NCBI GenBank assembly: GCA_963674945.2 | Contig: CAXXWQ010000003.1 | Span: 448,001 to 512,000, forward strand | DNA: 64,000 nt | Direction of reading: 5' to 3' | Source: an uncultured Desulfosarcina sp. | Lineage (GTDB): Bacteria; Desulfobacterota; Desulfobacteria; Desulfobacterales; Desulfosarcinaceae | In this document: positions 152 through 22,572 of the stretch, in pieces | Position numbering within the stretch: the stretch's first letter is position 1 | Layout: every line of letters begins with the position of its first letter | Position numbers and translations under genes: made by a program | Notes under the pieces: generated by a model | Database searches by the model: none | The model's input: the letters and a program-made list of their open reading frames with translations, nothing else | What the model was told of the DNA's origin: nothing

Positions 152-333
152 GTCCAAACCTCCCGTTTTTTTAATCATTGCATTGAAGATGATGATTGCT
201 GCCCGCTCTTTTACCGAAACAGTATGAATGGATTTTGCATTGTCAACATTCTACAAATCGTTTTTCCTTGCATTATTTTTTTCCACATACAATAAAAGAT
301 AATATACCAAATGATTCGCGAGCGGAGATGTCC

Positions 334-966
334 ATGGATAGGAATAATACGAAAAAGCAGTCGGGTTCACTGATGCTCATAACGAGTTCCGGTCTTCGCG
401 GAAGGCAATCCGTACGGGCCACTTTCAAGCTGTCATCGAGTTGTATCGATGCGATCAGTATCGTTGCCGCGCAATTGGGCATAAAGCAAAAGTCCCTGTT
501 CGACCACCTGGCCCAAGATAGCGACTTTCTCAACACCATTGCAAGAGAGGTGCAAAACGCACGCATCCCACCGGAAAACAGGGTACAAAAAACCTACGTG
601 ATCAGCAGAAGTTCCCTTACTTTGTTGGATGAAATTTCCAAGGCCTTCAATGCGCCCCGCGACGCGCTGGTGGAGTATTCGGTTCGCCGCCTATTGCCCG
701 TGATCGACAGGGAACAAAAAAAGTATGAACTGCGCAAAACCGCATACGAAAAAATCGAAAATCACCTGGAAAACGGGTTGCGCCTGCTGAGTGAAACCAT
801 CGAGCAGTTGAGTGAGGATGATCCGGTTGTGATCAAACTGGCCTCGGCACTGGACAATTACGCCTCGGCCAGGGATACAATCGCTACCTTTTTGAAACGA
901 ACCCAGGGAATCGAAGATTTCGATCCGGATGACCTCAACCGGTTCGAAGTTCAGTTTGACCGGTAG
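334..966 (+). CDS. Hypothetical protein with two ribbon-helix-helix-like repeats and a helical C-terminus
   Basis: ORF 196..966; ATG 334 follows GGAG. Two strand-helix-helix segments: RATFKLSSSCIDAISIVAAQLGIKQKSLFDHL and QKTYVISRSSLTLLDEISKAFNAPRDALVEYSV. Confidence 0.6.
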   Translation: MDRNNTKKQSGSLMLITSSGLRGRQSVRATFKLSSSCIDAISIVAAQLGIKQKSLFDHLAQDSDFLNTIAREVQNARIPPENRVQKTYVISRSSLTLLDEISKAFNAPRDALVEYSVRRLLPVIDREQKKYELRKTAYEKIENHLENGLRLLSETIEQLSEDDPVVIKLASALDNYASARDTIATFLKRTQGIEDFDPDDLNRFEVQFDR

Positions 967-3925: not shown

Positions 3926-5227
3926 ATGTTTCGAAAAAAAACGCGTATGTCATCGGGTGTCAGCCAGCTGGATCGACAGCTGGGTGGATTGTACATTGGA
4001 GACAACGTCGTCTGGTATGACGACGCCGGAAGCCTGGCATCGATCTTCAGCCTCAATTTCATCCAGGAATCCCTGAACCGAGAAAAACCCCTCATCTACA
4101 TCTCTTTCGACCGTTCGCCCAAGACCCTCATCGAAAATTTGGGGCCCCTTGCCGAAAGCCAGTACCTGTCCATTTTGGACTGTTTTACTCACGGAAAAGG
4201 CGATGGCAGCGAGGTATTTAGCAAATTCTATGAAAAGGACGGGGCCCATTGGCCCTTTCAGATCGTCCGGATCAACGATGCGGCCAATCCGGATGTTGTG
4301 GCAGACGCCATTTATCGTCTCCATGCAACCATGAAGGGGGACGTTCGGTTCGTATTCGACTCCCTTACCGGAATGCAGGAGCTGTGGGGCGGGGAAGAGG
4401 CCATCTTGAAGTTTTACTCCCGTGCCTGTCCCCGATTGTATGAACTGGACACGATCGCATACTGGATCATGGAGAAAGGGGCGCACTCCGAACGGCTTCG
4501 GGCCAGTATCAACCAGATCGCCCAGGTGGCCATCGAATTGTCCATCAGCCGTGGCAAGTCGGCCCTGACCATTTTAAAGGCGGACAAGCGAAAGCCGGAC
4601 GCCTTGAATGTTCCACTGATCTACTGGAACGAAGGCATGGATGTGGCCTTTGAAATGGAGACGGGCAAGGGAGGCAACATCGATATCGGGGGTCGGGTGA
4701 AACAGATCCGCAACCGTCAGGGAATGTCCCAGAAGAATCTGGCGGCCTCGGTGGGTGTTTCCCCCAGCACCATATCCCAGATCGAAAGCGGTACCATCTA
4801 CCCATCGATACCGGCAATCTGTAAAATCGCCAATGTGCTGAATGTGGATGTGGCCGGCTTCTTCAAAGGGCAGACAGAGGTTGCCGAACGCCTGGTTTTT
4901 TCCGGGGGTGGCATCCCCACCAGCCTATCCGACCTTCCCCGACAGGACGTGAATGGCTATCGCCTTTCGCCCCCCGATTTCGATGCCGCTGCACAACCGT
5001 ACATCATCGAAATTCCGGCCGGCAGAAAGCTTGCCTCCCATTTCTTCGTCCACAAGGGAGAAGAGATGGGCTATGTGCTCAGCGGAAGTCTGGAGTTGAA
5101 GGTGGGCAATCGCCTGCACCGGGCTGACGAAGGGGACGTGGTCTACCTGGTATCGGACCTGCCTTCCCAGTGGAAAAATATCGGTGGAAAGATGGCCAGG
5201 TTGCTCTGGATCAAAATAAAGAAGTAA
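3926..5227 (+). CDS. XRE-family transcriptional regulator: degenerate KaiC/RecA-like N-terminal domain, HTH and cupin
   Basis: N-terminus SSGVSQLDRQLGGL...VFDSLT; HTH IGGRVKQIRNRQGMSQKNLAASVGVSPSTISQIESG; cupin HKGEEMGYVLSG. Confidence 0.85.
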   Translation: MFRKKTRMSSGVSQLDRQLGGLYIGDNVVWYDDAGSLASIFSLNFIQESLNREKPLIYISFDRSPKTLIENLGPLAESQYLSILDCFTHGKGDGSEVFSKFYEKDGAHWPFQIVRINDAANPDVVADAIYRLHATMKGDVRFVFDSLTGMQELWGGEEAILKFYSRACPRLYELDTIAYWIMEKGAHSERLRASINQIAQVAIELSISRGKSALTILKADKRKPDALNVPLIYWNEGMDVAFEMETGKGGNIDIGGRVKQIRNRQGMSQKNLAASVGVSPSTISQIESGTIYPSIPAICKIANVLNVDVAGFFKGQTEVAERLVFSGGGIPTSLSDLPRQDVNGYRLSPPDFDAAAQPYIIEIPAGRKLASHFFVHKGEEMGYVLSGSLELKVGNRLHRADEGDVVYLVSDLPSQWKNIGGKMARLLWIKIKK

Positions 5228-5296
5228 AAATCCGGGTACAGAGTGCCCGTATTTGGACTATCCTTGGAAAGGAAGATGCACTGCGATCACTGAAAA

Positions 5297-5418
5297 CCAC
5301 AGGAGTCAGAAGCCAGAATTCAGGAGCCAGAATGAATCTGATGTCGCTTCGCTCCATCGATCTCATAATATGGATCGAGACCTGATTCTGGATTCTGACT
5401 CCTGGATTCTTGTATTCT
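5297..5418. repeat. Heptamer-armed palindromic intergenic element, copy 2 (inverted relative to 1040-1158)
   Basis: ACCACAGGAGTCAGAAGCCAGAATTCAGGAGCCAGAATGAATCTGATGTCGCTTCGCTC, compared with the reverse complement of copy 1: ACCACAGGAGCCGGAAGCCAGAATCGAGGAGCCAGAATAAATTTGATGTCGCTTCGCTC. Confidence 0.8.
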
Positions 5419-5525
5419 ACGTACTTTTTAAAACGCTTTTCCCTCTTTTCCGTCTATCGGCAAAAAAAATAATAACGAGTTTCTTTTATGCGATTGTTTG
5501 GCCATAAATAGCCTGGAAAAGCTTT

Positions 5526-7187
5526 TTATGAGTTGAGTATCTTTCTGGCACTCTCGTCATTTGCATCGGCCATGTGGCGGATTCCTGTCTCTCTTGCCGT
5601 TTCCCGGTTGCCGGCAAAAATGTCGTCCCGGGTCAGTTGGGTGACGGAGAACTTTCGGGAGCCGGCAAGAAGTTGCTGCATGCCGCAGTAAAGTTTGTCG
5701 GCCAGGGTGTAAAAGGCGATCGCCCCATAGGGAATGCGCTTCATTTCGTCCTTGCCCACGATCTTTTCTACGTCGAAGTAGCAGGCAAAGATCTCCTTGG
5801 CCGTGGAGCCCACTTCGAGGACCGATTTGGGCAGCTCGTTCCAATTCCCGTTCAGGTCTCCCCGCTTTTCCGGAAAGAGCGCACCTTCGATGTTGGTCCC
5901 CACGAAGCCGGGAATCATGATGCCGCGGCCCATGCAGATCAACTTGGTAAACGGTGCACCCAGGGCCAGCCCCTTGTATATGCTGTCTTCCAGGGCAAAT
6001 CCGCCGGCAAAGGACATATCCACGACCTTGAGTCCCTTTGCCGCAAGGATACTGGCGTACTCGTACGCCTTGCTGTGCAGGGTGATGGAGGGCACACCCC
6101 AGCTTTGCATCATGTTCCACGGACTCATACCTGTTCCGCCACCCGAACCGTCGATGGTGAGCAGGTCCAGTCCCGCATCGGTGGCGAACTTGATTGCCAT
6201 GGCCAGCTCTTCCATGCCGTAAGATCCGGTTTTCAGGGTAATGCGGGAAAAGCCGATGCTTCGCAGGTATTCCACGCTGCTCATGAAATCCTCTCGCACC
6301 TGGCCCACGGATTTCAGATTGGTAGCGCCCAGGCGGCTGTGGCGGGCGAAGGATTTGATGGAACCGTTCTCAAACGCCTCTTGCACTTCGGGGATGGTGG
6401 GATCCGGATCGACCACGTAGCCCCGCTCTTTGAGGAAAATCGCATAGTCGAGACTCGTCACCTGGATCTCGCCGCCGATGTCTTTGGCGCCCTGGCCCCA
6501 TTTTAGTTCGATGATCACCTTGTCGCCGTATTTGTCGGCCACAAATTCGGCCACACCGTTTCTCGTGTCTTCCACGTTGAGTTGGACGATGATGGCGCCG
6601 TAACCGTTGTAATAACGGAAATAGCTCTCGATGCGCCTCTCCAGTTCGGGAGCCTTCTTGATCTTTCCTTTGCGCTCGGGGCCCGTGGCGATTTCCGATT
6701 CCCGATCCACACCGACCACATTCTCGCCGATGACAACGGGAATCCCGATCAGAGCACCGCCGATGGCAAAAGAGTCCCAATACTTCGCGGCGATAAAGGT
6801 GGACCCCAGGGCGCCGGTCATGAGCGGTATGCGTGACTTGGTTTTCACTTTGTTGCCGAATTCTGTCTCCAGCGTGACGTTGGGAAAAATACAATCGTCG
6901 GCATTGTCGGTCAATCCGCCGGCCATGCCCTGGGCACCGTATGCATATCCCTGGATACGAAGAGAATTATAGGAAACCCCGACGTGGGTCGTGTTGTCGG
7001 CGCCGGCGGTAACAAATCCGAAGCTCCTGGGGTAGAGCAGTTTGCGTCCCACAAGGCTGGAAAGCCAGGTCTCGCATTTGCCCGTACAGTCGGCGCGGCA
7101 CAGGGTGCACAGGCTGGATTCGGTTGGATTGCCACGGTTAGCGGTTCCCAGGGCATCATTTTTCTTGGAAAATCTCATCGATAGCAT
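5526..7187 (-). CDS. FMN-binding glutamate synthase family protein (stand-alone FMN domain)
   Basis: IELKWGQGAKDIGGE, LTIDGSGGGTGMSP, AGGF...KGLALGAP; N-terminal CxxCxxxCxxxC. Confidence 0.88.
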   Translation of the reverse strand: MLSMRFSKKNDALGTANRGNPTESSLCTLCRADCTGKCETWLSSLVGRKLLYPRSFGFVTAGADNTTHVGVSYNSLRIQGYAYGAQGMAGGLTDNADDCIFPNVTLETEFGNKVKTKSRIPLMTGALGSTFIAAKYWDSFAIGGALIGIPVVIGENVVGVDRESEIATGPERKGKIKKAPELERRIESYFRYYNGYGAIIVQLNVEDTRNGVAEFVADKYGDKVIIELKWGQGAKDIGGEIQVTSLDYAIFLKERGYVVDPDPTIPEVQEAFENGSIKSFARHSRLGATNLKSVGQVREDFMSSVEYLRSIGFSRITLKTGSYGMEELAMAIKFATDAGLDLLTIDGSGGGTGMSPWNMMQSWGVPSITLHSKAYEYASILAAKGLKVVDMSFAGGFALEDSIYKGLALGAPFTKLICMGRGIMIPGFVGTNIEGALFPEKRGDLNGNWNELPKSVLEVGSTAKEIFACYFDVEKIVGKDEMKRIPYGAIAFYTLADKLYCGMQQLLAGSRKFSVTQLTRDDIFAGNRETARETGIRHMADANDESARKILNS

Positions 7188-7254
7188 GGTTCGGCTTCCT
7201 TTCTTCGTGTAGTTGATGTTCCGTTTCCGGCGGTACGTACGATTCTTTTTCCTT

Positions 7255-7455
7255 TACAAAAAAACAAAACGGCGCCGCATCGGTGGGCTGTTGCCGACCG
7301 ATGCCAGACGCCGTTGTCTACGAGTCCGGTTACCCCAATACCCCTTTTCCCACGAACCGTGCGCCAATCGTTTGCTAATAACCCGAACTGACGAAAGATC
7401 GTGGGAAAGGCGTACGTCTGTTAACCGTCCAACCGCCGCTCACGCCGTTGTGAGC
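7255..7455 (-). promoter_or_regulatory. ANTAR-type attenuator: two hexaloop hairpins plus an overlapping intrinsic terminator
   Basis: Minus-strand GCUCAC-AACGGC-GUGAGC (7438-7455) and UAGAC-AACGGC-GUCUG (7305-7320). The second overlaps the terminator AACGGCGUC..GCAUCGGU/ACCGAUGC-GGCGCCGUU followed by a U tract. Confidence 0.82.
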
Positions 7456-7623
7456 AGTCGGATAATTGGATCCACACTTGTACGAAACGCCCCTGAAAAA
7501 CAGGAGAAGCATATCTATAGTTTTACTTAATTTTTGTCAACTGATTTTATATCGAATTCTTCAGTTTTAATTAACACGTGGCCCTACGAACCCAATTTCT
7601 GGACAGGGCAGATGGAAGGCAAC

Positions 7624-8346
7624 CTATCGATCCAAGGAGATGTCCTCGGAGAGAATGACCGCTTCGGCAATATACCGAAGTGGCTTTCTGGAGTCCATGC
7701 TGCGCTTTTGGAGCCACCGAAAGGCATCCTCTCCTTTCATCTGGCGGCGATTCATCAGAATCTCCTTAGCGCGATCCACCATCTTGCGTGTCTCCAGCTC
7801 TTCTTGAATCACCTTGGCCTTGACCATGAGTTCCGCGTTCAGGATGGCAAGGGCCGCCTGATTGGCGACGGCGGTAAACATATTGATTTCCGCGTCGGAA
7901 AATGCGTGCGGCGCGGCCGTGAAACAGTTGAGCACACCGATGATGCGATCCTCCTTGACCGTCATCGGAATTCCGACCATGGACACCACCCCTAGCTTCC
8001 TGGCCATCTCTTTTTCCTTGAAGCGGGGGTTCTTCAGCACGTCGCTGATGGCGATGGGTCGCTTGTGGGTTACCACGTAGCCCACCACCCCTTCGTTCAA
8101 GGCCAGGGATCGATCCTTTACATATTCCGGATCGATGGATTGGGTCGCCTTCAAGCGGATCTGGGGCGGCTTCGATTGTTCATCGACGAGCCAGAGGGAG
8201 CAGATTTCCACACCGGTAACCTTGGCCGTAACCATGACGATCAGCTTGAGCAGGTCCTCCAGAAAATAGTCCGATGCAATGGCCTGGCTGATGTCTGTAA
8301 GAGCCTTGAGATAGGCATCATAAGTGGCTTGATCGAGCTTTTCCAT
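7624..8346 (-). CDS. GAF + ANTAR domain RNA-binding antiterminator
   Basis: GAF region (GVVGYVV...IGVLNCF...ANQAALAI) followed by the ANTAR signature LETRKMVDRAKEILM...AFRWLQKRSMDSRKPL..IAEAVI. Confidence 0.93.
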   Translation of the reverse strand: MEKLDQATYDAYLKALTDISQAIASDYFLEDLLKLIVMVTAKVTGVEICSLWLVDEQSKPPQIRLKATQSIDPEYVKDRSLALNEGVVGYVVTHKRPIAISDVLKNPRFKEKEMARKLGVVSMVGIPMTVKEDRIIGVLNCFTAAPHAFSDAEINMFTAVANQAALAILNAELMVKAKVIQEELETRKMVDRAKEILMNRRQMKGEDAFRWLQKRSMDSRKPLRYIAEAVILSEDISLDR

Positions 8347-8517
8347 GATTGCGGATGGTACAACGATTGCTATTTATTTTCAATAATTTGTTTTGGTTAA
8401 TCCTTATTGACACAATTTTTATTGACTTTTAGTTATACTAAACTTAAATCGAAATAATTCATTTTAAATGCACTTGTATTCTCCTACTGTTGTTCCTATG
8501 GATAAATGAGGTAAATC

Positions 8518-9645
8518 ATGTGCCGTTTACTCGCCATCACGAGCAAGGAGTATGTTTCACCGCAAACTGCCGTAGAGGGACTTGCCGCCATGGGGGAAGG
8601 TTACGACGGGTCCGGTGTGGGTCTTCTGCTTCGCGATCTGGGCGGTCCATTTGCCCAAATGACGGATATTCCCATACTAAGCGGCATATTTTCCTCAAAA
8701 GGGCTCAAGCGACTGGACCGGTTCATGATGGACAAGGGGTTTACCACGAAATACAAGATCACCTTCAAGCCACGGCAACCGGTGCCGCCGTCTGTTCCCA
8801 AAAGGGACGTTTACCTCGTTCGGGCCTATGACTATCCCACGCAATGGGAAGAGATGGCGAACCAGGAGCGGCTCGATCGACTGGCGCCCATTCGACTCTG
8901 CCTGCGCGAAATGGGCGAGGCGGAGAAAGACATGATGGTCTTCTCGTTATGGCCGGATACGATTATGATCAAGGAGGTCGGTGATCCGGCGGCGGTCGCC
9001 GACTATCTGCAACTGGATCGAAACGATCTGATGGCCCGCGTGATCATGCTTCAGGGACGGCAGAACACCAATCATGAGATCGACCTGTACGCCTGCCATC
9101 CCTTCTTTTTGGAAGGTTTTTCCACCATGACCAACGGTGAGAACACGGCATTTTCCCAGAACCGTGATTTTCTCATGTCGAGAGGCATCTCGGGATACCA
9201 GGGCTATCTGTCGGATTCGGAGGTGTTCACCCACAGCCTTCATTACATCATCGGCCAGCTGGGATTGGGGCTGGGTTTCTATAAACACGGAATCACGCCG
9301 TTGTCCGACGAGGACATTCGAACGCATCCGGACGGTTCATTTCTCCAACAATTGAAATACTCCTGCCGTAATCTGATCATCGACGGCCCTAATTGCATCA
9401 TCGGCTGCCTTCCGGATACCACCTTATTCATGGTTCAGGATCGCAAAAAACTCAGACCCGGTGTCATCGGCAGTAACAATGGCACATTCGTCTTTTCATC
9501 GGAAATATGTGGCCTTGATGCCATCCTTCCACAAAGGGACAAGTCGAAAGACTTTCAGCCCATGCACCTGGACACCGCCATCGTCGGCCCGTTTCGCAAG
9601 CGGGTCGATATCTTGCAGCAGACTGACCCTGTCTTGGCAAACTAA
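8518..9645 (+). CDS. Class II (Ntn) glutamine amidotransferase, glutamate synthase domain-1-like
   Basis: N-terminal MC nucleophile, GRQNTN, ACHPF, NGEN, SDSEV, DRKKLRP, SSEICG. Confidence 0.88.
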   Translation: MCRLLAITSKEYVSPQTAVEGLAAMGEGYDGSGVGLLLRDLGGPFAQMTDIPILSGIFSSKGLKRLDRFMMDKGFTTKYKITFKPRQPVPPSVPKRDVYLVRAYDYPTQWEEMANQERLDRLAPIRLCLREMGEAEKDMMVFSLWPDTIMIKEVGDPAAVADYLQLDRNDLMARVIMLQGRQNTNHEIDLYACHPFFLEGFSTMTNGENTAFSQNRDFLMSRGISGYQGYLSDSEVFTHSLHYIIGQLGLGLGFYKHGITPLSDEDIRTHPDGSFLQQLKYSCRNLIIDGPNCIIGCLPDTTLFMVQDRKKLRPGVIGSNNGTFVFSSEICGLDAILPQRDKSKDFQPMHLDTAIVGPFRKRVDILQQTDPVLAN

Positions 9646-10061
9646 GTCCTTAGCCGGACGGCATTTCCTGCCTTAGATCATCTCCCGGCAAAGGCTTTAA
9701 TTGTCCTTCCGGATTCTTTGCCCACTCGACTGTTGTCCTGTTCATCGGCTTTTGGGCCTTTGCTTGTCATACTTTTTCATTCGCACTAAAATAGTACAAC
9801 ACTCTTTCGGCTTTGCGTCAATATTGTCAAAGTTTCATTCAGGCAACCGTATTTGGCGCGATTTTATATTTTTCGCGGGCATTGCCCGCTCCTGACTACA
9901 CCAACTAATAATTGGTTATTCGCTATACAATTTTTATTAAAAAGATACCTTTATGATAGCCTGAAAGGGCGGCCGGATTTAGTGATTAAAAGAAAGATTA
10001 GATGAAATAATAGTAGATGCTTTTATAATCCGTTAGAATCTTGATTTCCATTATACCTTTT

Positions 10062-11627
10062 GTAACCGTTCACGGGGCATTTTAGGGCTGACATCATGGC
10101 CTTTAACCCATTGAAAACAAAGCATAAATTGTGTGCACCGTAACTGCCTGAAATAATTTAAAATAAATCTAGATTTTTTCTTTTAACTATGTTAGAGTGC
10201 TTTTCATGGCACTCAAAAGACCATTTTCAGAACTCGATTGGCAACTGACACCAGAGGCGGTGAGAAATTACATCCTATATCTGGAACAGGCGCTTCATGA
10301 TATGCAAAAATGGGTTGAGACCCATGAAAAACGCATAGAGAAACTTGAAGTCCAGACCAAAATGAATTCTCGTAATTCCAGTAAACCGCCCTCATCCGAT
10401 CCGCCTTTTAGCAAGCAGAAAAGAAAACAGAAAAAGAGCAAGCGATCCAAAGGCGGACAAAAAGGACACAAACCGCACCAGCAACAACTGCTCGAGCCGA
10501 CAAAGCAACATTCGTTGATGCCAAAATGCTGCAGTTGTGGTCATTCGGTGTTCGATCAGGAAAAGATGAAGCCTTTTTACACCCATCAACAGATCGAACT
10601 TCCCAAAATCGAAATGGAAGTCAGCCACTATATTCTGCACAAGTGCGATTGCCCCAATTGCGGGAAGGTTGTCAAAGCCAAGCTGCCATCTGCCCTGTCG
10701 AGCGGATACGGTCCCCGATTTACCGCATTTGTTGGTGAATTAAGCGGTATTAAAGGGATGAGCCGAATGGACGTAAAGCAGTTATGCGACTCTGTGTTAG
10801 ACATTCCCATTGCTACGGGGACGATCCAAAAAATCGTTGACCGCACTTCAATGGCGATTTTGCCTGTGTATGAACGTATCGGGGGTATCGCCAGAAGTTT
10901 CTGGTGCAATTATATCGATGAGACCTCCTGGTTTACAGAAAACGATCTGCACTGGCTGTGGGCCATGGTCAACGAGCGGGTTGCTTTCTATCGCATAGAC
11001 CCGCATCGCTCCAAGGTGGCTTTCGAAGCACTCATCCAGGACTGGAACGGCATTCTGGTCAGCGACGGTTACGGCCTGTATCAAAAATGGGTTCACCGCC
11101 AGACGTGCCTGGCTCATCTAATCCGTAAGGCCGATTCTCTGGCGGAGAGAAAGAAGCCGGATTTACGTCGCTTCGGAGAAATCGTCGCCGCTTGGTTGAG
11201 ACAACTGGTATCGTTTGCCAAAGAGCCACCCGACCCAAAGCAATGGTCGGATTTTTATACATTCTTCTTGTTTACCGTGTCCCTTTGGGAACCCGATAAA
11301 ACGGATGCAGGAAAACTCGCTCGGCAGATCATCCGGGAAATGAACAACCTATGGGTGTTTATGGATCACAAGGGCGTCGATCCCACAAACAATCGTGCCG
11401 AAAGAGCGCTACGCTTTGGTGTATTGTGGCGGAAACGAAGCCTTGGCACCCAAAGCGAGAAAGGAAACCGTTGGGTTGAGCGGATATTGTCACTGAAAGA
11501 AACCTGTCGCTTACAAGCAAAGCAGACTTTTCCTTTTCTCGTGGAGTGCATTACTTCCTATTTTCGAAATTTAGAGCCAAACCTTTCCTGGATTTAATCC
11601 AATGGGTGTTACCCTGTGAATGCGTAC
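10062..11627 (+). mobile_element. IS66-family insertion sequence (single-ORF type) with 8-bp target duplication
   Basis: Left end GTAACCGTTCACGGGG (10062); right end reverse complement GTACGCATTCACAGGG (ends 11627). TACCTTTT is repeated at 10054-10061 and 11628-11635. Confidence 0.93.
10197..11597 (+). CDS. IS66-family transposase (TnpC-like)
   Basis: NSRNSSKPPSSD, GGQKGH, zinc finger, IDET, LVSDGY, QTCLAHLIR, PTNNRAERALR. Confidence 0.95.
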   Translation: MLFMALKRPFSELDWQLTPEAVRNYILYLEQALHDMQKWVETHEKRIEKLEVQTKMNSRNSSKPPSSDPPFSKQKRKQKKSKRSKGGQKGHKPHQQQLLEPTKQHSLMPKCCSCGHSVFDQEKMKPFYTHQQIELPKIEMEVSHYILHKCDCPNCGKVVKAKLPSALSSGYGPRFTAFVGELSGIKGMSRMDVKQLCDSVLDIPIATGTIQKIVDRTSMAILPVYERIGGIARSFWCNYIDETSWFTENDLHWLWAMVNERVAFYRIDPHRSKVAFEALIQDWNGILVSDGYGLYQKWVHRQTCLAHLIRKADSLAERKKPDLRRFGEIVAAWLRQLVSFAKEPPDPKQWSDFYTFFLFTVSLWEPDKTDAGKLARQIIREMNNLWVFMDHKGVDPTNNRAERALRFGVLWRKRSLGTQSEKGNRWVERILSLKETCRLQAKQTFPFLVECITSYFRNLEPNLSWI

Positions 11628-13057
11628 TACCTTTTTAATCGGTGGCGTAACGTATTTCGACTAATCCCGAGCATCCGGGCGGCTTTGACCTGATTATTAC
11701 CGCATTCTTCAAGGACTTTCAGAATGATGGTCTTTTCCACGGTCTCAATGATATTGGTATGAATGCCTTCTTTGAATAGCTGGATTACTTCCGGTAGAAT
11801 ATTTTGAATCTTGTCTTTTAAACGACTCATCACCTGCTGTCGGTTTAAGGTCTGAGCACAGAGCTCTTTTTGTTTGTCCAGAAGCTCGATATGCTCTTCC
11901 ATTATAACGTCTCCGGCACAGAGGATAACAGCCCGCCGCAGGCAGTTTTCCAACTCGCGAATATTTCCAGGCCAGGAATAGGTTGTAAAATGATGTAAGA
12001 CCTCTTCCGACACACGACGGATCGGTTTGCTGTATTCGGCCCCGAACCGGCCGATAAAATAATCCATCAGTTCCGGGATATCTTCGGATCTTTTTCTTAA
12101 CGGCGGAAGGTCAATGGCAATGACTTTCAGCCGCCAATATAGATCTTCTCTAAACAATCCTTCCTGAACTGCTATGGAGAGGTCCTTGTTGGTTGCCGCA
12201 ATAATACGGACATCGACTTTGATGGTTTTTACGCCCCCTAACCTTTCAATCTCGCCTTCCTGCAAAACACGAAGCAATTTGGCCTGTAAGGCCATGGATA
12301 TGTCCCCAATTTCATCCAAAAAACAGGTCCCCCCGTTTGCTCGCTCGATTTTACCGATTTTGGTGCGAGAGGCACCGGTAAATGCACCGGGTTCATAGCC
12401 GAACAACTCACTTTCGAAAAGTTGCTCCGGTATGGCGGCGCAATTAATGGCAAGAAACGGTTTTTCCTTTCGTCGGCTGTGGTGATAAATGGCTTTTGCC
12501 GCCAGTTCTTTTCCGGTACCACTTTCACCGGTGAGCAGCACCGCCACGTTTTTTTCTGCAATCTGGCCGATGGTTTTATAGACCGATTGCATAGTTTTGC
12601 TCCGTCCTACCATTTTCAACGTCTTATCCAAAGAAGCCATTTCAAATGGAGAAACCGCATCGGGAATCAAGACAACTTCCTTCATTCGGCGGTTCAATTC
12701 CAAGGCCTCGCTGACAATACGGCTAAGCTCCTTTCTTTCAAATGGTTTGCTTAAATAATCATAAGCCCCCCGTTTTATGGTTTCGATGGCCGTATCGGTG
12801 CTGCCGTATGCGGTCATGATGATAATCGGAGTTTTAACCTGCGCATCTTTGATTCTTTTTAACGTGTCCAGCCCGTTAAGTCCCGGCATCTTATAATCCA
12901 ACAGAATCAGATCGAAACTTTCATCGTTGATTTTCCTGATGGCGTCTTCACCGCTGAGACAAGTGGTCACGTCATACCCTTTTCTCTTGAAAAACCGGTT
13001 GAGAAAATGGTTTAAACCTTCGTCATCGTCAATGAGTAATATTTTTTCCATTTGCAT
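11627..13057 (-). CDS. Sigma-54-dependent response regulator (NtrC family; REC, AAA+, Fis HTH), C-terminus clipped by the IS
   Basis: ILLIDDD/LLDYKMPG, GESGTGKEL, ESELFG..GAFTGA, WPGNIRELEN, NQVKAARMLGISRNTL. Confidence 0.95.
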   Translation of the reverse strand: MQMEKILLIDDDEGLNHFLNRFFKRKGYDVTTCLSGEDAIRKINDESFDLILLDYKMPGLNGLDTLKRIKDAQVKTPIIIMTAYGSTDTAIETIKRGAYDYLSKPFERKELSRIVSEALELNRRMKEVVLIPDAVSPFEMASLDKTLKMVGRSKTMQSVYKTIGQIAEKNVAVLLTGESGTGKELAAKAIYHHSRRKEKPFLAINCAAIPEQLFESELFGYEPGAFTGASRTKIGKIERANGGTCFLDEIGDISMALQAKLLRVLQEGEIERLGGVKTIKVDVRIIAATNKDLSIAVQEGLFREDLYWRLKVIAIDLPPLRKRSEDIPELMDYFIGRFGAEYSKPIRRVSEEVLHHFTTYSWPGNIRELENCLRRAVILCAGDVIMEEHIELLDKQKELCAQTLNRQQVMSRLKDKIQNILPEVIQLFKEGIHTNIIETVEKTIILKVLEECGNNQVKAARMLGISRNTLRHRLKR

Positions 13058-14900
13058 AGGGTTCTTCAGATGTTATCGGGAGAATAAGGGAAATGACGGC
13101 ACCGCCTTTTTCCTGGTTGTTTACATGGATTTCTCCATTATGGCTTTTTATAGTGTTAAATACCATGGGCAGCCCAAGGCCCGTTCCTGCTGATTTAGTA
13201 GTAAAAAAAGGGTCAAAAATAAAATCAATGTTTTCCAGGGAAATCCCTGGCCCCGAATCCATAATATCGATGCGGATAACAGGAACCGGAAATTTGCCGG
13301 CCCCTGTTATTTTCATGGTTTCCGGTTTTACGGTTATCTGGATCATCCCATTCTCCTGCATGGCTTCCAAGGCATTGATAAAAAGATTGATCAACGCCTC
13401 TTCAAGCAATTTCTTGTCCCCGGTTATTTCGGGCAAATTTTGCGCCACATGGGTTTTGACCACACTTTCCTGTTTGTTGGCCAGAGGTCGAATCAGTGAA
13501 ACAACGTCCGCAATCAGTTGCGCCATAGAAATTTTCGAAAAAACCATTTCCTTTGGCTTGGTATAATCCAACAATCGGTTAATAGCAGCTTCGATACGAG
13601 ATATCTGCCCCATACCAATGATAAAATCTTCTGCATATTCCTGTGAAATTTCGATTTCGCCCTGGATGGATTCCAAAAATAGCTTGAGAGAAGTCAAGGG
13701 GGTGCGGATTTCATGAGCAACGGCGGCACCCAAGCGCCCCAAGGCGGCAAATTTCTCCGACCGTTCGGCGATGAGTTTAAATTGTTTCAGCGTCTGATCG
13801 GTTTCTTTAAGTTCCGCGGCTTTCAGGTTGAATTGATGTTCAAGCGTGTTTTGCCTATACTGAATCTTCTGAGCCATGTCTGCAAAAGCACGGCATAAAA
13901 CCCCGATTTCATCCCGACGTTGGGTCTGAAAGATTTCGGTATTGAAATCGGCTACGGCAAGGAATTTCGCTGATCGGCTAAGGTTCCGGACCGGCCTGAT
14001 AACATGGTATGAAAAGACCCAAGTCAGCATGAATGCGCTACTAATGGCCAGAACAATCATAATATAGACGAGGCGTTTCAAACTGTCCATGCTTTGAAAC
14101 GCCTCATCCCTATCCTGTTCAACCACGATGTACCAATCCGTCCCTCCAACCTGACGGGAGGTTCCTAACACCTCGATGTTGCGATAATCCAGATAAGTTT
14201 TTTTTGGCCCCCTGCTCCCGAAAAGGTTTTTAAAGCTTTCCGATTGAGAGATATTTTCCGTTAAAATACGTCCAGGTTCCTTATGAGCGAGAAAGGTCCC
14301 ATTCTTATCTACAAGATAGCATTCACCGGTTTCTCCAAGAGCCACCTGCAAAATAATGGTGATGATATTATTGGTTCCCACAGTACCAAAAACGGTGCCG
14401 ATACGATCGCCGTTGTCAAAAATCGGTGCAGTAATTCGAAAAGTTGATTCCCTTTCCTTTGGGAGATAGGTAATGGGAGAAAGAACAAGGGGTTTGGTAG
14501 AACAGCCGGATAGGTGAGCAGTATCAAATTTTGGATACGTTTCGTTTGTACTCAAAACGAAATCATTTTGAGCAGACAGCACCGAGATATCGTTGTACAC
14601 CCCGTAATGGATTTGTATCAGCTTGAGATATGGGGCAATCAATGCCGGGTCCAACGATTTTAATAGTGATGTACCGGCAATCACCTGCATATCCTGTTTG
14701 CGTTCCTCCAGCCACCGCTCCAGTATGGCAGCCTTGTCTGTGGCAATGTTTTCAAGTTGACGCAATACCAGATTTTCAATTAGCGATTCGGTAGTATTGA
14801 TGGAAAATACGCCAACCACGGCTAAAGGAAAAAGTGCAAGCACCAAAAACAGGAGCACCAGCTTGGTTTTAAGTGCAAAAAACTTTTTAAAGAACCTCAA
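13029..14900 (-). CDS. Sensor histidine kinase (Cache-like periplasmic domain, HAMP, HisKA, HATPase)
   Basis: Two TM segments; AHEIRTPL, NLFINALEA, DSGPGI, FDPFFTTK..GTGLGL. Confidence 0.93.
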   Translation of the reverse strand: MRFFKKFFALKTKLVLLFLVLALFPLAVVGVFSINTTESLIENLVLRQLENIATDKAAILERWLEERKQDMQVIAGTSLLKSLDPALIAPYLKLIQIHYGVYNDISVLSAQNDFVLSTNETYPKFDTAHLSGCSTKPLVLSPITYLPKERESTFRITAPIFDNGDRIGTVFGTVGTNNIITIILQVALGETGECYLVDKNGTFLAHKEPGRILTENISQSESFKNLFGSRGPKKTYLDYRNIEVLGTSRQVGGTDWYIVVEQDRDEAFQSMDSLKRLVYIMIVLAISSAFMLTWVFSYHVIRPVRNLSRSAKFLAVADFNTEIFQTQRRDEIGVLCRAFADMAQKIQYRQNTLEHQFNLKAAELKETDQTLKQFKLIAERSEKFAALGRLGAAVAHEIRTPLTSLKLFLESIQGEIEISQEYAEDFIIGMGQISRIEAAINRLLDYTKPKEMVFSKISMAQLIADVVSLIRPLANKQESVVKTHVAQNLPEITGDKKLLEEALINLFINALEAMQENGMIQITVKPETMKITGAGKFPVPVIRIDIMDSGPGISLENIDFIFDPFFTTKSAGTGLGLPMVFNTIKSHNGEIHVNNQEKGGAVISLILPITSEEPYANGKNITH

Positions 14901-14941
14901 TATGCAAATGCCTCGCTTTTACCTTCAAAATATTTTTCCTG

Positions 14942-17524
14942 TTATATCCAGCAACACACAAGTTCCTGCGTAACCACATCCGACTTGATGACCAATTCCC
15001 GGTTTTTTAAATCATAGACCTTTACCACATGGGCAAATCCCTCATCCTGGGGACGAATTTGAGAAAGCATGTTGGGCAATTCGGAAAGCAATTCCGGCCG
15101 GAACACGACATCCGTATTTTCCGGATAAATCGCAGCATAAAAAATACGTGTCTCGGTAAGATCATGAAAAAAATGGGTGCCGAAGGAGAGGTCTGGAATC
15201 ATGCTGCCGGGCTGATAGCTGATTTCCATCAGGGCGGTAACGTGATTAATTTCGGAAAATTTTACCGGCACACCCATGGCCGGGGTCTGCGTTCCCCAGC
15301 GACCCGGCCCCATGATCATGGTGGGATTTTTTTTCGGGTCCACGATTTCCCTGTTGAGCTTTCCGATGAGGCGGGCCACGCTGTACTTTTCCGATAATGA
15401 TGTGCTTGCGTAGTTTTCCGGTTCCACCCAGATCAGGCTGGTGATGGGAAACGAGACATTGCCCCCCATGAAATTCCCTTCCATCCGTATAAAGACCTTT
15501 TTCGGATCAATTTTTTGCGGAACGGGTATATCGGTGGTGTTGTAAATGGTCTGGAACGGACGGCATTGCAACAGGTTGACCTGGATATCACCCGCTGAAT
15601 TATGGTTAATTGTGAATTCTATTTCAACCGGCGTGGCATAGGCGCGCTCAATGGTTTTAAGCATTCGTCCCATGATGTCGACAAAAGGTGTGTGGGTCAA
15701 AAAATCATCAAAGGTCAATATCCATTGTGCTTCCAGAGATTTATTCATGCCGTAGCTTTTGGCTTTGTCGTCCCGGACGGCAATGGCCGACATATCGATG
15801 TCCCGGACTTTTCTGGCCAGTTCCCATAGTGAAATTGTTTTTACGATGTTTTCCCTAAGATCCAGATAATCCACGTAATGCTGCGAGTATTTTTTGATGT
15901 CCCGCATGCCGGCAAGGGGTTTGATTATGGGATCATCCATCGCCACAATTCGTGGATAGTCATTTTCAACCCGATTCACGGCACGGGTTCCAAGCCCCAT
16001 GACCAGCCTCAGCATTCCGGCCCCGGGGTCCATGTTTTTTTTCCAGACATAGGGGTTATGGGACAACCCTACACCGGCGAGTTCCGGAAAAAAATAGTTA
16101 TGATGATCAGACCCGGACACCCGCTGCACCATGATGGCCATTTGCTCATCCATTTGGTCCAGCCCCCTCTGGCGCCTGTAGGCAAGCGCGTCTTCACTCA
16201 TTGTTCCTGCAAAGATGCGCTTTACCGCATCCTCAAACGCTTCATAGCGTTTTTCCGGAGAAGCCTGATTGACGCAGAAGAAACTGTCATACCGCCCGGC
16301 GAATGCACTGCCGAAGGCGTCTTCCAACAGACTGCTGGAACGAACGATAATGGGAGACTGCCCAAAATAATCCAGCATGAGTCGAAACCGCTCCCGGATG
16401 GATTCGGGGAAAGTCCCTGAAAAAATTTTACGTTCCAGTTCAGCGGCTCTCGAGAAATACCCTTCCGGGGTTTTTTGGGCCATGAAAAGTTTCCACCACC
16501 CATTTTGGACGATATAGGAGTAGAACACATCGGAACCAATATAAAACGAATCATGTGGCTCCAAGGTACGCAGCCAGTCGTATCCCGGATCTTTGAGTAT
16601 TATCTTTCTCGAAAGCACCATGCCAAGCGCCTTACCCCCGACAAATCCCGTACCGATTAATCTCTCCTTGATGAAAAGCAGATCATCGAGGGACAAAAAC
16701 CGTCGAATCAATCCCAAAATCCTTTTATTACGGCTTAACAACAGGCGGCTGAGCTGTTCCACCTTGTCTTCTTTTTCCCTTGGATCTGCGTTGGATACCA
16801 GAAGGTTTTGGGCCTGTATAAAAAGATGGTCCCAGTAATCCAGAATCCGCTGCGCATTTGCGGCTTTTTCCCGCTGAAGATGGGAAAACAGACGTGTGGC
16901 TTCTACACTGTTGATCACCGGAACCAGAGTGGATTTTTCCTTGATATGGGGGAAAAACATGGTAGAGGCATAACGGCCCTGAATCTTGATAGGATGAATA
17001 CAGAGTTTGCGTTCGTAGCTATAGATATCAATGAGGACTTGGGTGGTTTCCCTGATGCCGGCAATGGCTTTGAAGGAATGGCGATTTCGCAAAATCGCGA
17101 AATAGGCAATGGTATTCAGTTCGAAGAGATAAGGACAAGTGACGAAAAAGAAGTTGACGATCATCAGATCCGTGGCCCATTCGTGGAGAAGGTCCGACAG
17201 GGAATCAAACACATAAAATATGTCTTTGCCTTCCCGGGTGATGATGCCGTGAACTTGTGTGGTAAACGATTCAAAGCCCGCTGTTACATCCAAATCATAT
17301 ATCCGGATATTCCGGCGTGGAGCCAAAATCGGGGCATGCCGGGCAAAACGCATATATACCACTCGCTCGTTGGTGGCCACGGCATTGTTTACAAAATATG
17401 ATACTAATTTGCGATAGGCATCAATATCATCCACCTGCCAAACCACATTGTCTCCCCTGCGAAGATGGTCGATGATATTGTCCAGACTTTCCCAACCCGT
17501 ACTGACATGTGAGTAGTATGCCAT
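14942..17524 (-). CDS. PEP/pyruvate-binding (PPDK/PEPS ATP-grasp-like) protein with a degenerate KaiC-like N-terminal domain
   Basis: GGKALG, PIIVRSSSLLED.FG.AFAG.Y, MAIMVQRV, GLGTRAV, VEIEF, LLQCRP. N-terminus VSTGWESLD...GDNVVW...VFDSL. Confidence 0.85.
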   Translation of the reverse strand: MAYYSHVSTGWESLDNIIDHLRRGDNVVWQVDDIDAYRKLVSYFVNNAVATNERVVYMRFARHAPILAPRRNIRIYDLDVTAGFESFTTQVHGIITREGKDIFYVFDSLSDLLHEWATDLMIVNFFFVTCPYLFELNTIAYFAILRNRHSFKAIAGIRETTQVLIDIYSYERKLCIHPIKIQGRYASTMFFPHIKEKSTLVPVINSVEATRLFSHLQREKAANAQRILDYWDHLFIQAQNLLVSNADPREKEDKVEQLSRLLLSRNKRILGLIRRFLSLDDLLFIKERLIGTGFVGGKALGMVLSRKIILKDPGYDWLRTLEPHDSFYIGSDVFYSYIVQNGWWKLFMAQKTPEGYFSRAAELERKIFSGTFPESIRERFRLMLDYFGQSPIIVRSSSLLEDAFGSAFAGRYDSFFCVNQASPEKRYEAFEDAVKRIFAGTMSEDALAYRRQRGLDQMDEQMAIMVQRVSGSDHHNYFFPELAGVGLSHNPYVWKKNMDPGAGMLRLVMGLGTRAVNRVENDYPRIVAMDDPIIKPLAGMRDIKKYSQHYVDYLDLRENIVKTISLWELARKVRDIDMSAIAVRDDKAKSYGMNKSLEAQWILTFDDFLTHTPFVDIMGRMLKTIERAYATPVEIEFTINHNSAGDIQVNLLQCRPFQTIYNTTDIPVPQKIDPKKVFIRMEGNFMGGNVSFPITSLIWVEPENYASTSLSEKYSVARLIGKLNREIVDPKKNPTMIMGPGRWGTQTPAMGVPVKFSEINHVTALMEISYQPGSMIPDLSFGTHFFHDLTETRIFYAAIYPENTDVVFRPELLSELPNMLSQIRPQDEGFAHVVKVYDLKNRELVIKSDVVTQELVCCWI

Positions 17525-17622: not shown

Positions 17623-18996
<1,374 letters not shown>

Positions 18997-19539
18997 TTAA
19001 TTTGCATATTTATATTCAAAAACATCATAGTTTCCATCATCTTTAATAGTGTAAATTTTTGCGGTTTTTTGTCTTTGCCAAACCGGCCGTTTCAATTTGT
19101 AATAAGTGACATCATCAGCAGTAAGGCCGTCAATGCCGACAAATTCTCTTTTCAGTTCTGCGAGGCTGTCAAAACCACTTCCGAAAAACGGCAGCTTTGA
19201 AAAATAGGGGCGGGGACTTTGCATGTCCGTTGCGACTGCAAAATGAGTTGGAAATATGGGATCACCAAACACCAGCAGATAACGGTCCGAAGATGTTGCG
19301 ATATGATAGTCGGAGGGGATATCATCTTTCTCAATTTCGTCATAATACTCTTTTAAAATAGCCCCGGCTTCAACATTATCCACATCGTCAACAGCCATAA
19401 GATCGGTGGATGAGAAGTAACCTAAAACATAAAGAGCAATGCTGAAAGAACTGATCTGCTCATAAATGGGCTGTTCTCTATCACAAATCATTATGATTTC
19501 ATCGATTCTTTCTCTGACGAGAATTCCCTCTGCGTCCAT
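18997..19539 (-). CDS. Hypothetical acidic protein directly upstream of gdhA
   Basis: Open frame with GAGGTG before ATG 19539; ends 18 bp before the gdhA start. Confidence 0.7.
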   Translation of the reverse strand: MDAEGILVRERIDEIIMICDREQPIYEQISSFSIALYVLGYFSSTDLMAVDDVDNVEAGAILKEYYDEIEKDDIPSDYHIATSSDRYLLVFGDPIFPTHFAVATDMQSPRPYFSKLPFFGSGFDSLAELKREFVGIDGLTADDVTYYKLKRPVWQRQKTAKIYTIKDDGNYDVFEYKYAN

Positions 19540-19598: not shown

Positions 19599-19615
19599 GT
19601 CAAAAGATATGCCAA
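19599..19615 (-). promoter_or_regulatory. Possible sigma-54 promoter
   Basis: Minus strand TTGGCATATCTTTTGAC, i.e. GG-N10-GA. The -12 position deviates from the GC consensus. Confidence 0.45.
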
Positions 19616-21158: not shown

Positions 21159-21929
21159 CTACTTCTTCCCCTGCCTTCCATTCACCTGCTCCAGACACAT
21201 CAAGGAATGGGCGAAGGCGATAAAACGCTCCAGGTACGCCGGCGAGAGGTCCTCCATGGCTTCGAGGCAGCACGTGGAGATCATCTGACCGTTGAGGTGT
21301 CCGGGATTCTCCGGAAGATTTCGGACGGCGTCCGCAACAATCTTTTTTGCGCCTTGCCTCGCCAGGGTCCGCCGGAAAACCGCAAAGGAACGAAGCCTGC
21401 CGGGATGCCAATCCCCTGAGGCGCTTCCTTTTCGAATAAAGTCGTCAAAGGCGCCGATGATCCGGGCCTCCTGATCTTTGAGCAGGTGGTCCAGAAACAG
21501 GCGATTGTCATCCAGGCTCGCGTTCTCTCCCACCTTTTTCAACTCTTGGATCAAGCCCGGGAGAAAACCCTGGTCCGTATGATTTGATGACGTCCGGACG
21601 GCCTTTTTCAGGGCCTGGAAATCACCCTTTTCCAGAAGTCGATGTATCTTTCTGGCCGATTCCGGGTCTTTCGACCGGATCCGCTCCATGTCCGCCCGCA
21701 CCGCCTCTTGGGCCGCATCCAGCCGTTTCGAAAGAGCGTCCAGCAGATATTTTGCTCTCTCCTCGATTTTCCGGCGAATGGATGGACGCATTTTCGCAGA
21801 CCGCCGGACCAGGGAGGTGACATGGCGGAACCGGACCGGTTCGAATCCATCGGCACCTCGCTCCTGCAAAGCCCGAAGGCGCGATTCCATCGTTCCGGTG
21901 GTTTCCATGGTCAGCGATTCTTTGTCCAT
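21159..21929 (-). CDS. DUF2894-like protein (ZorG-like)
   Basis: GADGFEPVRFRHV..L.RR and PENPGHLN..M....LEAM..LSPAYL.RF, recognised as DUF2894 patterns. Last gene of the four-gene cluster. Confidence 0.75.
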   Translation of the reverse strand: MDKESLTMETTGTMESRLRALQERGADGFEPVRFRHVTSLVRRSAKMRPSIRRKIEERAKYLLDALSKRLDAAQEAVRADMERIRSKDPESARKIHRLLEKGDFQALKKAVRTSSNHTDQGFLPGLIQELKKVGENASLDDNRLFLDHLLKDQEARIIGAFDDFIRKGSASGDWHPGRLRSFAVFRRTLARQGAKKIVADAVRNLPENPGHLNGQMISTCCLEAMEDLSPAYLERFIAFAHSLMCLEQVNGRQGKK

Positions 21930-21936
21930 GTTCGAA

Positions 21937-22572
21937 TCATCGGGCTGACCCACGCCTGTTTTTCGGGACAGGCGCGATTTCCACCCGGCGATTTTTGCTG
22001 CGCCCCGGTTCATCGAGATTGTCGGCGACGGGATGGTTCTCGCCAAAGGCGGCGGCGAAGACCAGTTCACCGGGCATTCCCTCTTCGATCAATGCCCGGG
22101 TGACGGTGAGCGCCCGCTGGGCGGACAGCTCCCAGTTGTCATGAAACAGGGGATTGTCTCCATGAATCGGCAAATCATCGGTAAACCCGCTGACCATCAA
22201 TAGTTCATCCCGGTCGCCGAGATAGGCGCAAAGGGGACGGACCAGGGTTTGAAGCAGTTCCCGTCCTTCGGCCTGGAGCCGATCTGAATTGAGCGCGAAC
22301 AGGACACTTCCACTGATGCCGATTCGGCCATCTTCCAGGGTGATCCTGCCCGTCGCCAGCGGGTCGGCCAAAGCGTTTTCCAGAAGCATGCGGCGCTCCT
22401 GTTCCACCTTTCGTCTCTGCACCTCTGACTTGAGCGACTGTGACAATTCCACCTGGAATCCCATCGTCCAGACGAGCAGCAGGACGAAGACGCCCACCAG
22501 TCCCGACATGAGATCGCCGAAAATCGCCCAGATGGGCGGGTTATCAGAAGGGACGGACGCTAACGGTTCCAT
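21937..22572 (-). CDS. MotB/OmpA-family protein (ZorB-like)
   Basis: TM segment with the conserved Asp (WAIFGDLMSGL); peptidoglycan-binding domain GFTD, NWELSAQRA, NRRVEI. Confidence 0.9.
   Translation of the reverse strand: MEPLASVPSDNPPIWAIFGDLMSGLVGVFVLLLVWTMGFQVELSQSLKSEVQRRKVEQERRMLLENALADPLATGRITLEDGRIGISGSVLFALNSDRLQAEGRELLQTLVRPLCAYLGDRDELLMVSGFTDDLPIHGDNPLFHDNWELSAQRALTVTRALIEEGMPGELVFAAAFGENHPVADNLDEPGRSKNRRVEIAPVPKNRRGSAR

Follow-up and report, generated by a model that had tools for sequence, protein, structure and literature searches.

We describe here a stretch of DNA of 64,000 nucleotides from an uncultured Desulfosarcina sp. (assembly GCA_963674945.2, contig CAXXWQ010000003.1, positions 448,001 to 512,000 of the forward strand), referred to as the window and numbered from its first letter. 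Within it, a transcription regulator of the XRE-cupin type and a protein resembling pyruvate phosphate dikinase (PPDK) both start with an inactive KaiC-like (iKaiC) domain, and both lie among genes of glutamate and nitrogen metabolism. We focus on what this domain senses and on what the dikinase-like protein acts upon. The open reading frames and all the motifs quoted in an original prediction, made from the letters alone, are present in the translations. The two proteins and their domains are arranged as follows.

3926..5227, forward strand: iKaiC-XRE-cupin transcription regulator, 433 residues (PF06745 at 9-204, HTH_3 at 258-310, Cupin_2 at 360-429)
3926..4639, forward strand: inactive KaiC-like domain of the regulator (hhalign 99.95% to the dikinase N-domain; no Walker A)
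14942..17524, reverse strand: dikinase-like protein of 860 residues, starting with the ATG at 17524, in the order iKaiC, helical linker, ATP-grasp, predicted histidine swivel (PF01326 E 7e-50; AlphaFold2 predicted local distance difference test, pLDDT, 88)
16910..17524, reverse strand: its inactive KaiC-like domain, residues 1-205 (VIA match to KaiC 9ofh; Foldseek)
15545..16654, reverse strand: its PPDK_N ATP-grasp with K298, R395, E634, E636, Q653 and R655 (VIA Z 26.5 to rifampin phosphotransferase, 5hv1)
14945..15541, reverse strand: its C-terminal domain, predicted to adopt a swivelling beta/beta/alpha fold and containing GPGRWG and G-[TS]-H784-F-F (H784 codon at 15173-15175; model of the tail, pLDDT 94)

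The N-terminal domain shared by the two proteins is real. As the original prediction had it, the N-termini are alignable: over their first 200-240 residues, BLASTP of the two proteins gives 55 identities in 228 positions (24%, E 1e-14), and a profile-profile comparison (hhalign) of 44 dikinase N-domains with 31 XRE N-domains reaches a probability of 99.95% and an E-value of 4.4e-38 over 193 columns. The genome contains no copy of the domain beyond these two. In terms of fold, residues 1-205 of the dikinase-like AlphaFold2 model match KaiC (9ofh) with a VIA Z of 19.7 (root mean square deviation, rmsd, 3.1; 210 aligned) and FlaH with a Z of 17.2, PH0284 and the inactive Elp456 ring (Z 16.4) are further structural neighbours, and Foldseek returns KaiC, FlaH and RecA. 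The XRE copy also scores above the cut-off of the Pfam ATPase/KaiC family PF06745 (residues 9-204, E 1.1e-6). Both copies were expected to be degenerate RecA/KaiC folds, and they indeed combine the RecA-type alpha/beta core of the superfamily with the loss of its nucleotide-binding motif: Walker A GK[TS] is missing from all of 80 aligned domains and from each of the 444 GDNxxW motifs that 508 stored proteins contain, and GDNVVW-x-x-D/E stands where the P-loop would be. All three fusion types, described below, nevertheless retain a conserved surface made up of G24-D25-N26, W29, W116, C130-P131, H149, Q162, K180 and R184. Among 86 full-length rows of the dikinase-like family (9 shorter rows of 95 were left out of these residue counts), D107 is found in 86, K180 in 82 and R184 in 85; we take D107 to belong to a Walker B-like hhhhD-S and K180/R184 to be a KaiC-type C-terminal K/R pair.

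Besides the XRE-cupin and dikinase-like proteins, a third fusion type consists of five PAS/GAF signalling proteins (P0373, P0388, P0391-P0393), three of which have a histidine kinase domain; one PAS-type carrier is named from an archaeon. Because the domain also heads such proteins, it is a mobile input module like MEDS and iKaiC, fused to outputs as different as an XRE-cupin half, PAS/GAF histidine kinases and a dikinase core. MEDS, DUF835 and iKaiC-REC are described in PMC5847659 as inactive KaiC-fold modules on signalling proteins, and they share with the present domain the KaiC/RecA fold without ATPase motifs and the role of a module on kinases and regulators. The present domain, on the other hand, has its own signature (GDNVVW, CPxL), is mostly bacterial, sits on a dikinase core or an XRE-cupin protein and is tied to nitrogen genes. 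Pfam finds neither MEDS (PF14417) nor DUF835 (PF05763) on it at E up to 0.05, 1 or 5, the DUF835 of P0393 being a separate C-terminal domain, and since neither model matches, the domain is, judged by its sequence, a new family of inactive-KaiC-fold signalling modules. A quick tree of 80 rows places the XRE, the dikinase and the kinase copies each in a group of their own (support 100, 88 and 97), with a long branch between the XRE and dikinase clades. A recent local duplication of the domain was considered and rejected, as each copy groups in this tree with its own fusion type.

It is conceivable that the domain merely serves as a homo-oligomerization scaffold that binds no ligand, the cupin being the sensor of the regulator. 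RecA folds do oligomerize, the inactive Elp456 ring is among the structural neighbours, and the cupin is a plausible, PuuR-like ligand site. Three XRE members (L135-L137), however, keep the iKaiC domain in the absence of a cupin, polar residues (N26, H149, Q162, K180 and R184) are conserved across the three fusion types, and the domain occupies the sensor position of histidine kinases. We thus regard a mere scaffold as very improbable.

The dikinase-like protein has, first of all, a complete ATP-grasp core. In the model, a helical linker (residues ~206-290) leads from the iKaiC domain to the ATP-grasp (~291-660), which is followed by a tail of 199 residues. The closest database protein is likewise 860 residues long, and its closest relatives with a name come from the Desulfobacterales, for example Desulfosarcina. 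PPDK_N (PF01326) is the only Pfam match, and the ATP-grasp motifs noticed at the outset are borne out by this match and by the structural comparison: K298 and R395 are invariant in the 86 rows, E636 and Q653 are kept in 85 and R655 in 84, and position 634 is D or E, so that the PPDK_N set of catalytic residues is present. Their roles (K, R, D/E-x-E, Q-x-R) are presumably those in PPDK. Rifampin phosphotransferase (RPH) is the best structural match (Z 26.5), and HpeI is a further one (Z 18.9).

Second, the protein is not an ordinary phosphoenolpyruvate (PEP) synthase, in agreement with the original prediction. It shares with PEP synthase (PpsA) and PPDK the PPDK_N ATP-grasp with its catalytic residues, followed by a predicted histidine-swivel domain, but differs in its extra N-terminal input, in a tail unrecognizable by sequence and in lacking the PEP/pyruvate-binding TIM barrel (PF02896), which appears neither in the Pfam scan nor in the model, the 199 residues after the ATP-grasp being all tail domain. 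With a TIGR01418 score of 51 versus 740 bits in addition, ordinary PEP synthase is rejected, and the family is misannotated under that name. The genome carries, besides the dikinase-like protein, separate PF01326 genes followed by PF00391 domains. RPH and PigC/RedH likewise join an ATP-grasp to a C-terminal histidine swivel, which is a predicted one in the present protein, with no barrel; the dikinase-like protein differs from them in lacking an RPH-type central substrate-binding domain, for which the model leaves no room between ATP-grasp and tail, and in scoring 21-43 bits in NCBIfam against cut-offs of 999-1700. Relatives of 1461-1472 residues (P0029, named Geobacter, and P0027) are tandem fusions in which a core and histidine tail precede a full iKaiC-core-tail copy, and they have one iKaiC domain for two catalytic units.

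Third, the tail is predicted to be a swivel fold with H784 at the position of the phospho-histidine. The original prediction saw no TSHAA motif, and this spelling is indeed absent, but the predicted swivel tail has a conserved histidine, H784 in G-[TS]-H-F-F, which 123 of 125 rows share. In the model of the tail folded alone, H784 opens a helix after a strand and a loop, and the spacing around it, H-x6-E-x2-I, is that of canonical T[SC]HAAIVSRELGI. The VIA matches of the tail are mostly swivel-fold domains, with a DRTGG domain in the top row (Z 6.0) and, among others, the pyruvate kinase tail (Z 5.8, rmsd 3.1, 108 aligned), the phosphoryl carrier domain of PPDK (2fm4; Z 5.2 with 117 aligned at rmsd 3.8), the RPH histidine domain (Z 5.1, rmsd 3.7, 105 aligned) and the enzyme I phospho-carrier domain (Z 4.6). 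P740-G741-R742, E767 and S780 are near-invariant in addition to H784. The phospho-histidine domain PF00391 gives neither a Pfam nor a profile match on the tail, and ESM Atlas gives no usable match for it.

The main rival to a protein as acceptor of the phosphate is a metabolite. The large protein would then serve nitrogen metabolism as a dikinase or ligase acting on a small molecule, like RPH or PigC, and a metabolite, for instance glutamate or 2-oxoglutarate, would find its acceptor site in the enlarged tail (GPGRWG; ~200 versus ~110 residues); glutamate dehydrogenase (GDH), encoded next to it, would be a pathway neighbour and not the target, and the iKaiC domain would still be a sensor. The closest structures, RPH and HpeI, are small-molecule phosphotransferases, RraA-like aldolases and cyclases use swivel-fold domains for catalysis, and the further near-invariant tail residues speak for the same reading, against which stands the missing RPH-type substrate domain. 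Taken together with the gene neighbourhood discussed below, we consider this alternative possible, though on the doubtful side.

The neighbourhood of the dikinase-like gene contains the following features.

17623..18978, reverse strand: gdhA, NADP-specific glutamate dehydrogenase (NF006929 over cut-off)
18997..19539, reverse strand: conserved 180-residue gene (orf180) upstream of gdhA, with a DUF7689-like lead (in 43 of 77 dikinase loci)
19601..19614, reverse strand: site resembling a sigma-54 promoter, ahead of the orf180-gdhA operon (-12 element with one mismatch; alone in the window not above chance)
11627..13057, reverse strand: NtrC/AtoC-like sigma-54 response regulator (in 41 of 77 dikinase loci)
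13029..14900, reverse strand: dCache_1-HAMP histidine kinase (in 39 of 77 dikinase loci)

Across the family, GDH is the recurrent partner. It lies in 56 of the 77 dikinase loci, many of which end early at contig ends, while a full XRE gene is found within 10 kb in only one. The core and histidine tail occur with three different N-termini, namely iKaiC, a REC-like region of ~400 residues and a short third type, all of which keep the GPGRWG-like and G[ST]HFF motifs, and GDH accompanies each of them: it lies in the region fetched for 13/18 loci of the iKaiC type, 7/8 of the third type and 4/5 of the REC type. Beyond these, GDH is present in 4 of 6 metagenome REC loci, in 15 of 20 loci from the phylum of genome G151 (20 regions fetched for 23 matches) and in two of three Bacteroidota records; in Parabacteroides distasonis, an annotated gdhA is divergent from a REC-type gene. 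No GDH lies in any of 20 hand-picked control loci of canonical PEP synthase or PPDK. At the level of whole genomes, all 31 of the phylum genomes with any dikinase-core type have a GDH, as opposed to 48 of the 120 without one. Of the 18 iKaiC-dikinase loci, 16 hold some nitrogen-assimilation gene and 7 hold NrpR. The genome of the window has two REC-type paralogues, one (G000:C4:481578-485938) directly upstream of a second gdhA and the other (C3:1739050-1742037) with no GDH nearby. The linkage of the dikinase-like family to nitrogen genes that was originally proposed is strong in both locus and genome counts. A combination termed Bacteroides-like REC + pyruvate phosphate dikinase is named as a domain architecture in a passage of PMC5847659 that gives no function, histidine tail or GDH link for it. 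The REC-type paralogues found here have the ATP-grasp, GPGRWG and the G[ST]HFF tail and adjoin GDH; the protein in the window differs in carrying iKaiC in place of REC.

As for the operon itself, 37 of 43 loci have a sigma-54 site ahead of orf180-gdhA (0.26 expected), which fits the adjacent NtrC-like two-component system. ESM Atlas places orf180 (score 0.96) in the vicinity of a cluster with DUF7689 in 15% of its members, a comparison of language-model features only. The iKaiC-type dikinase has no match in the plasmid collection. Of 8000 candidates scored for the family as a whole, no fewer than 7940 clusters reach E<=1e-20, a figure that may include distant paralogues.

What, then, would the phosphate be passed to? 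The GDHs linked to dikinase-like genes fall into two subfamilies that are ~35% identical, and a comparison of 44 linked with 20 unlinked sequences reveals no acceptor residue common to the linked GDHs of both, which favours a metabolite as acceptor and also suits a third possibility, in which binding of the large protein, as a counter-enzyme or allosteric subunit, would control GDH or glutamate synthase, and ATP binding or autophosphorylation would be an internal switch with no transfer to the partner. Control of GDH or glutamate synthase by binding has precedents in Thermus APRTh-GDH, Bacillus GltAB-GudB and mycobacterial GarA, and the GDH linkage would look the same. However, the full conservation of the ATP-grasp residues and of H784 fits transfer to an outside acceptor, and a binding surface common to two such distant GDH subfamilies is not obvious; we hold control by binding to be unlikely. 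Against a metabolite, in turn, speak the three swappable N-termini, one of them REC-like, which suit a regulator, and the lack, within the queries used, of any further pathway enzyme conserved alongside across phyla. Because the inputs are swappable signalling domains, no known substrate domain is present and GDH is the sole partner kept across three phyla, GDH is favoured as protein acceptor. Linked GDHs of the second subfamily (L129, L149, L198-L204, L222-L231) differ from unlinked ones at many columns, as if forming a clade of their own, and the differences follow clade.

The original prediction further proposed that the two proteins form one module, possibly by hetero-oligomerization, and this is not supported. 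The XRE type (E<1e-25) is present in 41 and the full iKaiC-dikinase (E<1e-40, two fragments left out) in 18 of 151 phylum genomes, and both are present in 4, where 4.9 would be expected; 37 of the 41 XRE genomes have no iKaiC dikinase, and 14 of the 18 dikinase genomes have no XRE type. Among 81 genomes of the order, XRE is found in 5 of 10 dikinase genomes versus 4.6 expected, in a sample whose dikinases were detected with the XRE query only, so that some may be missed. An obligate hetero-oligomer is unlikely because the two proteins are not enriched together, and it is rejected on both co-occurrence and the tree. Hetero-oligomerization of the two iKaiC domains, coupling enzyme and transcription factor, could still be argued from the K180/R184 pair, which is kept in both and which we take to resemble the trans-acting motif of KaiC, and from the clustering of the genes in the window and in L049, L125 and L281. 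Given the missing joint enrichment, the separate clades, the long branch and the identity of 24%, we find such coupling very unlikely, if marginally less so than a mere scaffold. The dikinase-GDH and XRE-glutamate synthase genes are two modules that sometimes cluster. Between them lies a gene overlooked in the original account of the flanking genes, which was otherwise as described:

10197..11597, forward strand: IS66-family transposase, not part of the system (PF03050, PF20042, PF13005)

It has no obvious accessory genes and sits in a stretch of lower guanine-cytosine content.

The module of the XRE-cupin regulator comprises, apart from the regulator gene, the following features.

5526..7187, reverse strand: FMN-binding glutamate-synthase-like (GltS-like) gene (PF01645 E 1.3e-11)
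7265..7320, reverse strand: ANTAR-type hairpin GAC-AACGGC-GUC, which overlaps a terminator-like stem at its 5' arm; a U run comes after that stem (minimum free energy leader fold z -3.4; hairpin scan)
7439..7454, reverse strand: second ANTAR-type hairpin, CAC-AACGGC-GUG (hairpin scan)
7624..8346, reverse strand: GAF-ANTAR antiterminator (Pfam GAF and ANTAR)
8429..8441, no strand: palindrome TTAGT-N3-ACTAA, candidate operator, perfect copy (found in XRE loci and enriched in an independent set)
8518..9645, forward strand: putative glutamine amidotransferase subunit (class II, with an N-terminal Cys) of a split glutamate synthase

The C-terminal half of the regulator is PuuR-like (HTH_3 and cupin; NF007408 E 1.9e-14), but it scores 54 against a cut-off of 211, and the regulator differs from PuuR in its extra 240-residue iKaiC domain. 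Of 30 XRE loci, 21 contain a nitrogen gene and 17 contain the GltS-like gene, which is also present in 35/37 XRE genomes versus 24/44 others of the order; the link of this family to glutamate and nitrogen genes, also foreseen originally, is strong. The XRE type has no link to GDH, which 21 of the 41 XRE genomes in the phylum set possess. The GltS-like gene is likely the target of both the XRE regulator and ANTAR. Its leaders contain ANTAR-type hexaloop hairpins: 15 loci that also carry GAF-ANTAR have 34 of them (5.1 expected), and 15 loci lacking it have 14 (4.9 expected). According to PMC3369931, an ANTAR leader has a hexaloop hairpin with A1 and G4 that overlaps the 5' arm of a terminator, as does the one in the window, and such hairpins are reported there before glutamate synthase genes of Desulfotomaculum. 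The two clear hairpins in the window differ in lying ~130 nucleotides apart and not in close tandem, and are otherwise ordinary; closer pairs occur at L112, L209, L125 and L202. A simple terminator scan did not call the hairpin at 7265..7320, and sigma-70 and terminator scans were uninformative.

In an independent set of 29 loci, reduced to 25 because the flanks of 4 were short, the palindrome TTAGT-N3-ACTAA occurs with at most one mismatch in 12 of 25 regions upstream of GltS-like genes (1.3 expected) and in one of 25 downstream regions. The XRE regulator is the natural candidate for binding it; no palindrome common to the upstream regions of the XRE genes themselves was found. The product of 8518..9645, which matches no Pfam or NCBIfam family, shares 64.5% identity with the product of the first gene of a glutamate-synthase-like cluster at another place in the genome, and it likely serves a split glutamate synthase as its class II glutamine amidotransferase subunit. 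Elsewhere, the cupin-less iKaiC-XRE proteins stand beside glutamate synthase or methylenetetrahydrofolate reductase-like genes, and one XRE subgroup (L124, L125, L127-L130) lies directly upstream of a NuoE/NuoF/2Fe-2S cluster of electron-bifurcating type. In that subgroup, the GltS-like gene is often divergent, and the NuoEF cluster is possibly its electron donor module.

Because both carriers independently track ammonium-assimilation genes, we infer that the shared domain probably senses nitrogen status, separately for each protein. The reading we favour, with a probability of roughly 45%, adds to this that the large protein is an ATP-driven histidine phosphotransferase that regulates the neighbouring GDH. 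The ATP-grasp would phosphorylate H784, as in PEP synthase, PPDK and RPH, and the swivel would pass the phosphate to a protein, most likely GDH, thereby switching its activity. The interchangeable N-terminal inputs, be it iKaiC, the REC-like region or the short third type, would gate this transfer. In the XRE-cupin protein, the same domain would gate binding to TTAGT-N3-ACTAA before the GAF-ANTAR and glutamate-synthase-like genes, the leader of the latter would be under ANTAR antitermination, and the sigma-54 two-component system would drive orf180-gdhA.

Several observations weigh against this reading. First of all, the equivalence of H784 to the phospho-histidine is judged by eye from the order of the structural elements. 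Compared with 25 canonical PEP-utilizer histidine domains, the tail reaches an hhalign probability of 0.3, no better than shuffles, Foldseek finds no match for it at E<=0.001, and its VIA Z scores of 5-6 are middling for a swivel fold that also occurs in enzymes that are not phosphorylated, such as RraA and cyclases. Second, the genomes counted are related, and the counts overstate significance. Third, GDH is not nearby in L139, L142, L144, L148 and L153 or for the C3 paralogue, several dikinase-like copies adjoin glutamate synthase genes instead, and the missing common acceptor residue counts here as well. Finally, the palindrome is not statistically tied to the XRE regulator (11 of 21 XRE-positive versus 1 of 4 XRE-negative genomes, too small a sample).

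No Rfam family reaches its gathering score between 3700 and 20000. Outside the two modules, three genes on the reverse strand (21159-24845) encode a 761-residue membrane/coiled-coil protein with no Pfam match at 1e-8, an OmpA/MotB-like protein and a DUF2894 protein, a cluster that to us recalls MotAB/ZorAB-like pairs. A tandem pair of dynamin-like GTPase genes lies at 37526-41244 (reverse strand), and a 256-residue gene with no Pfam or NCBIfam match at 196-966 (forward strand), upstream of glycogen phosphorylase.

A literature search, to which most subscription papers were outside, found no title or abstract describing the sharing of the domain or the function of the dikinase-like family, and the available parts of PMC12596196 and bioRxiv 2023.05.11.540287 contain nothing on this family. 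Post-translational tuning of GDH in anaerobes (Desulfobacterota, Planctomycetota, Bacteroidota) is poorly known, and the dikinase-like family is a concrete candidate for a GDH regulator with one testable residue, H784. Being small and soluble, the shared domain lends itself to ligand screens, and it would carry inactive-KaiC signalling, described until now mainly in archaea, over to bacterial nitrogen control. More speculatively, and we put this forward as tentative and rather unlikely, a widespread and unrecognized class of protein kinases that are assembled from dikinase parts, and pass phosphate from an ATP-grasp via a mobile histidine to a target protein, may switch GDH on and off in anaerobes from sulfate reducers to gut Bacteroidota, with swappable inputs that include a new dead-KaiC nitrogen sensor also running a transcription factor and histidine kinases. 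In Bacteroides, GDH activity reportedly depends on trans-acting genes downstream of gdhA (a title by Baggio and Morrison, 1996), and work of the 1980s is said to have found that GDH of B. fragilis is inactivated reversibly. If this bolder proposal is true, the kinase would account for the 'trans-acting gene' still missing close to gdhA of Bacteroides, and it would provide a PII-independent route of nitrogen sensing.

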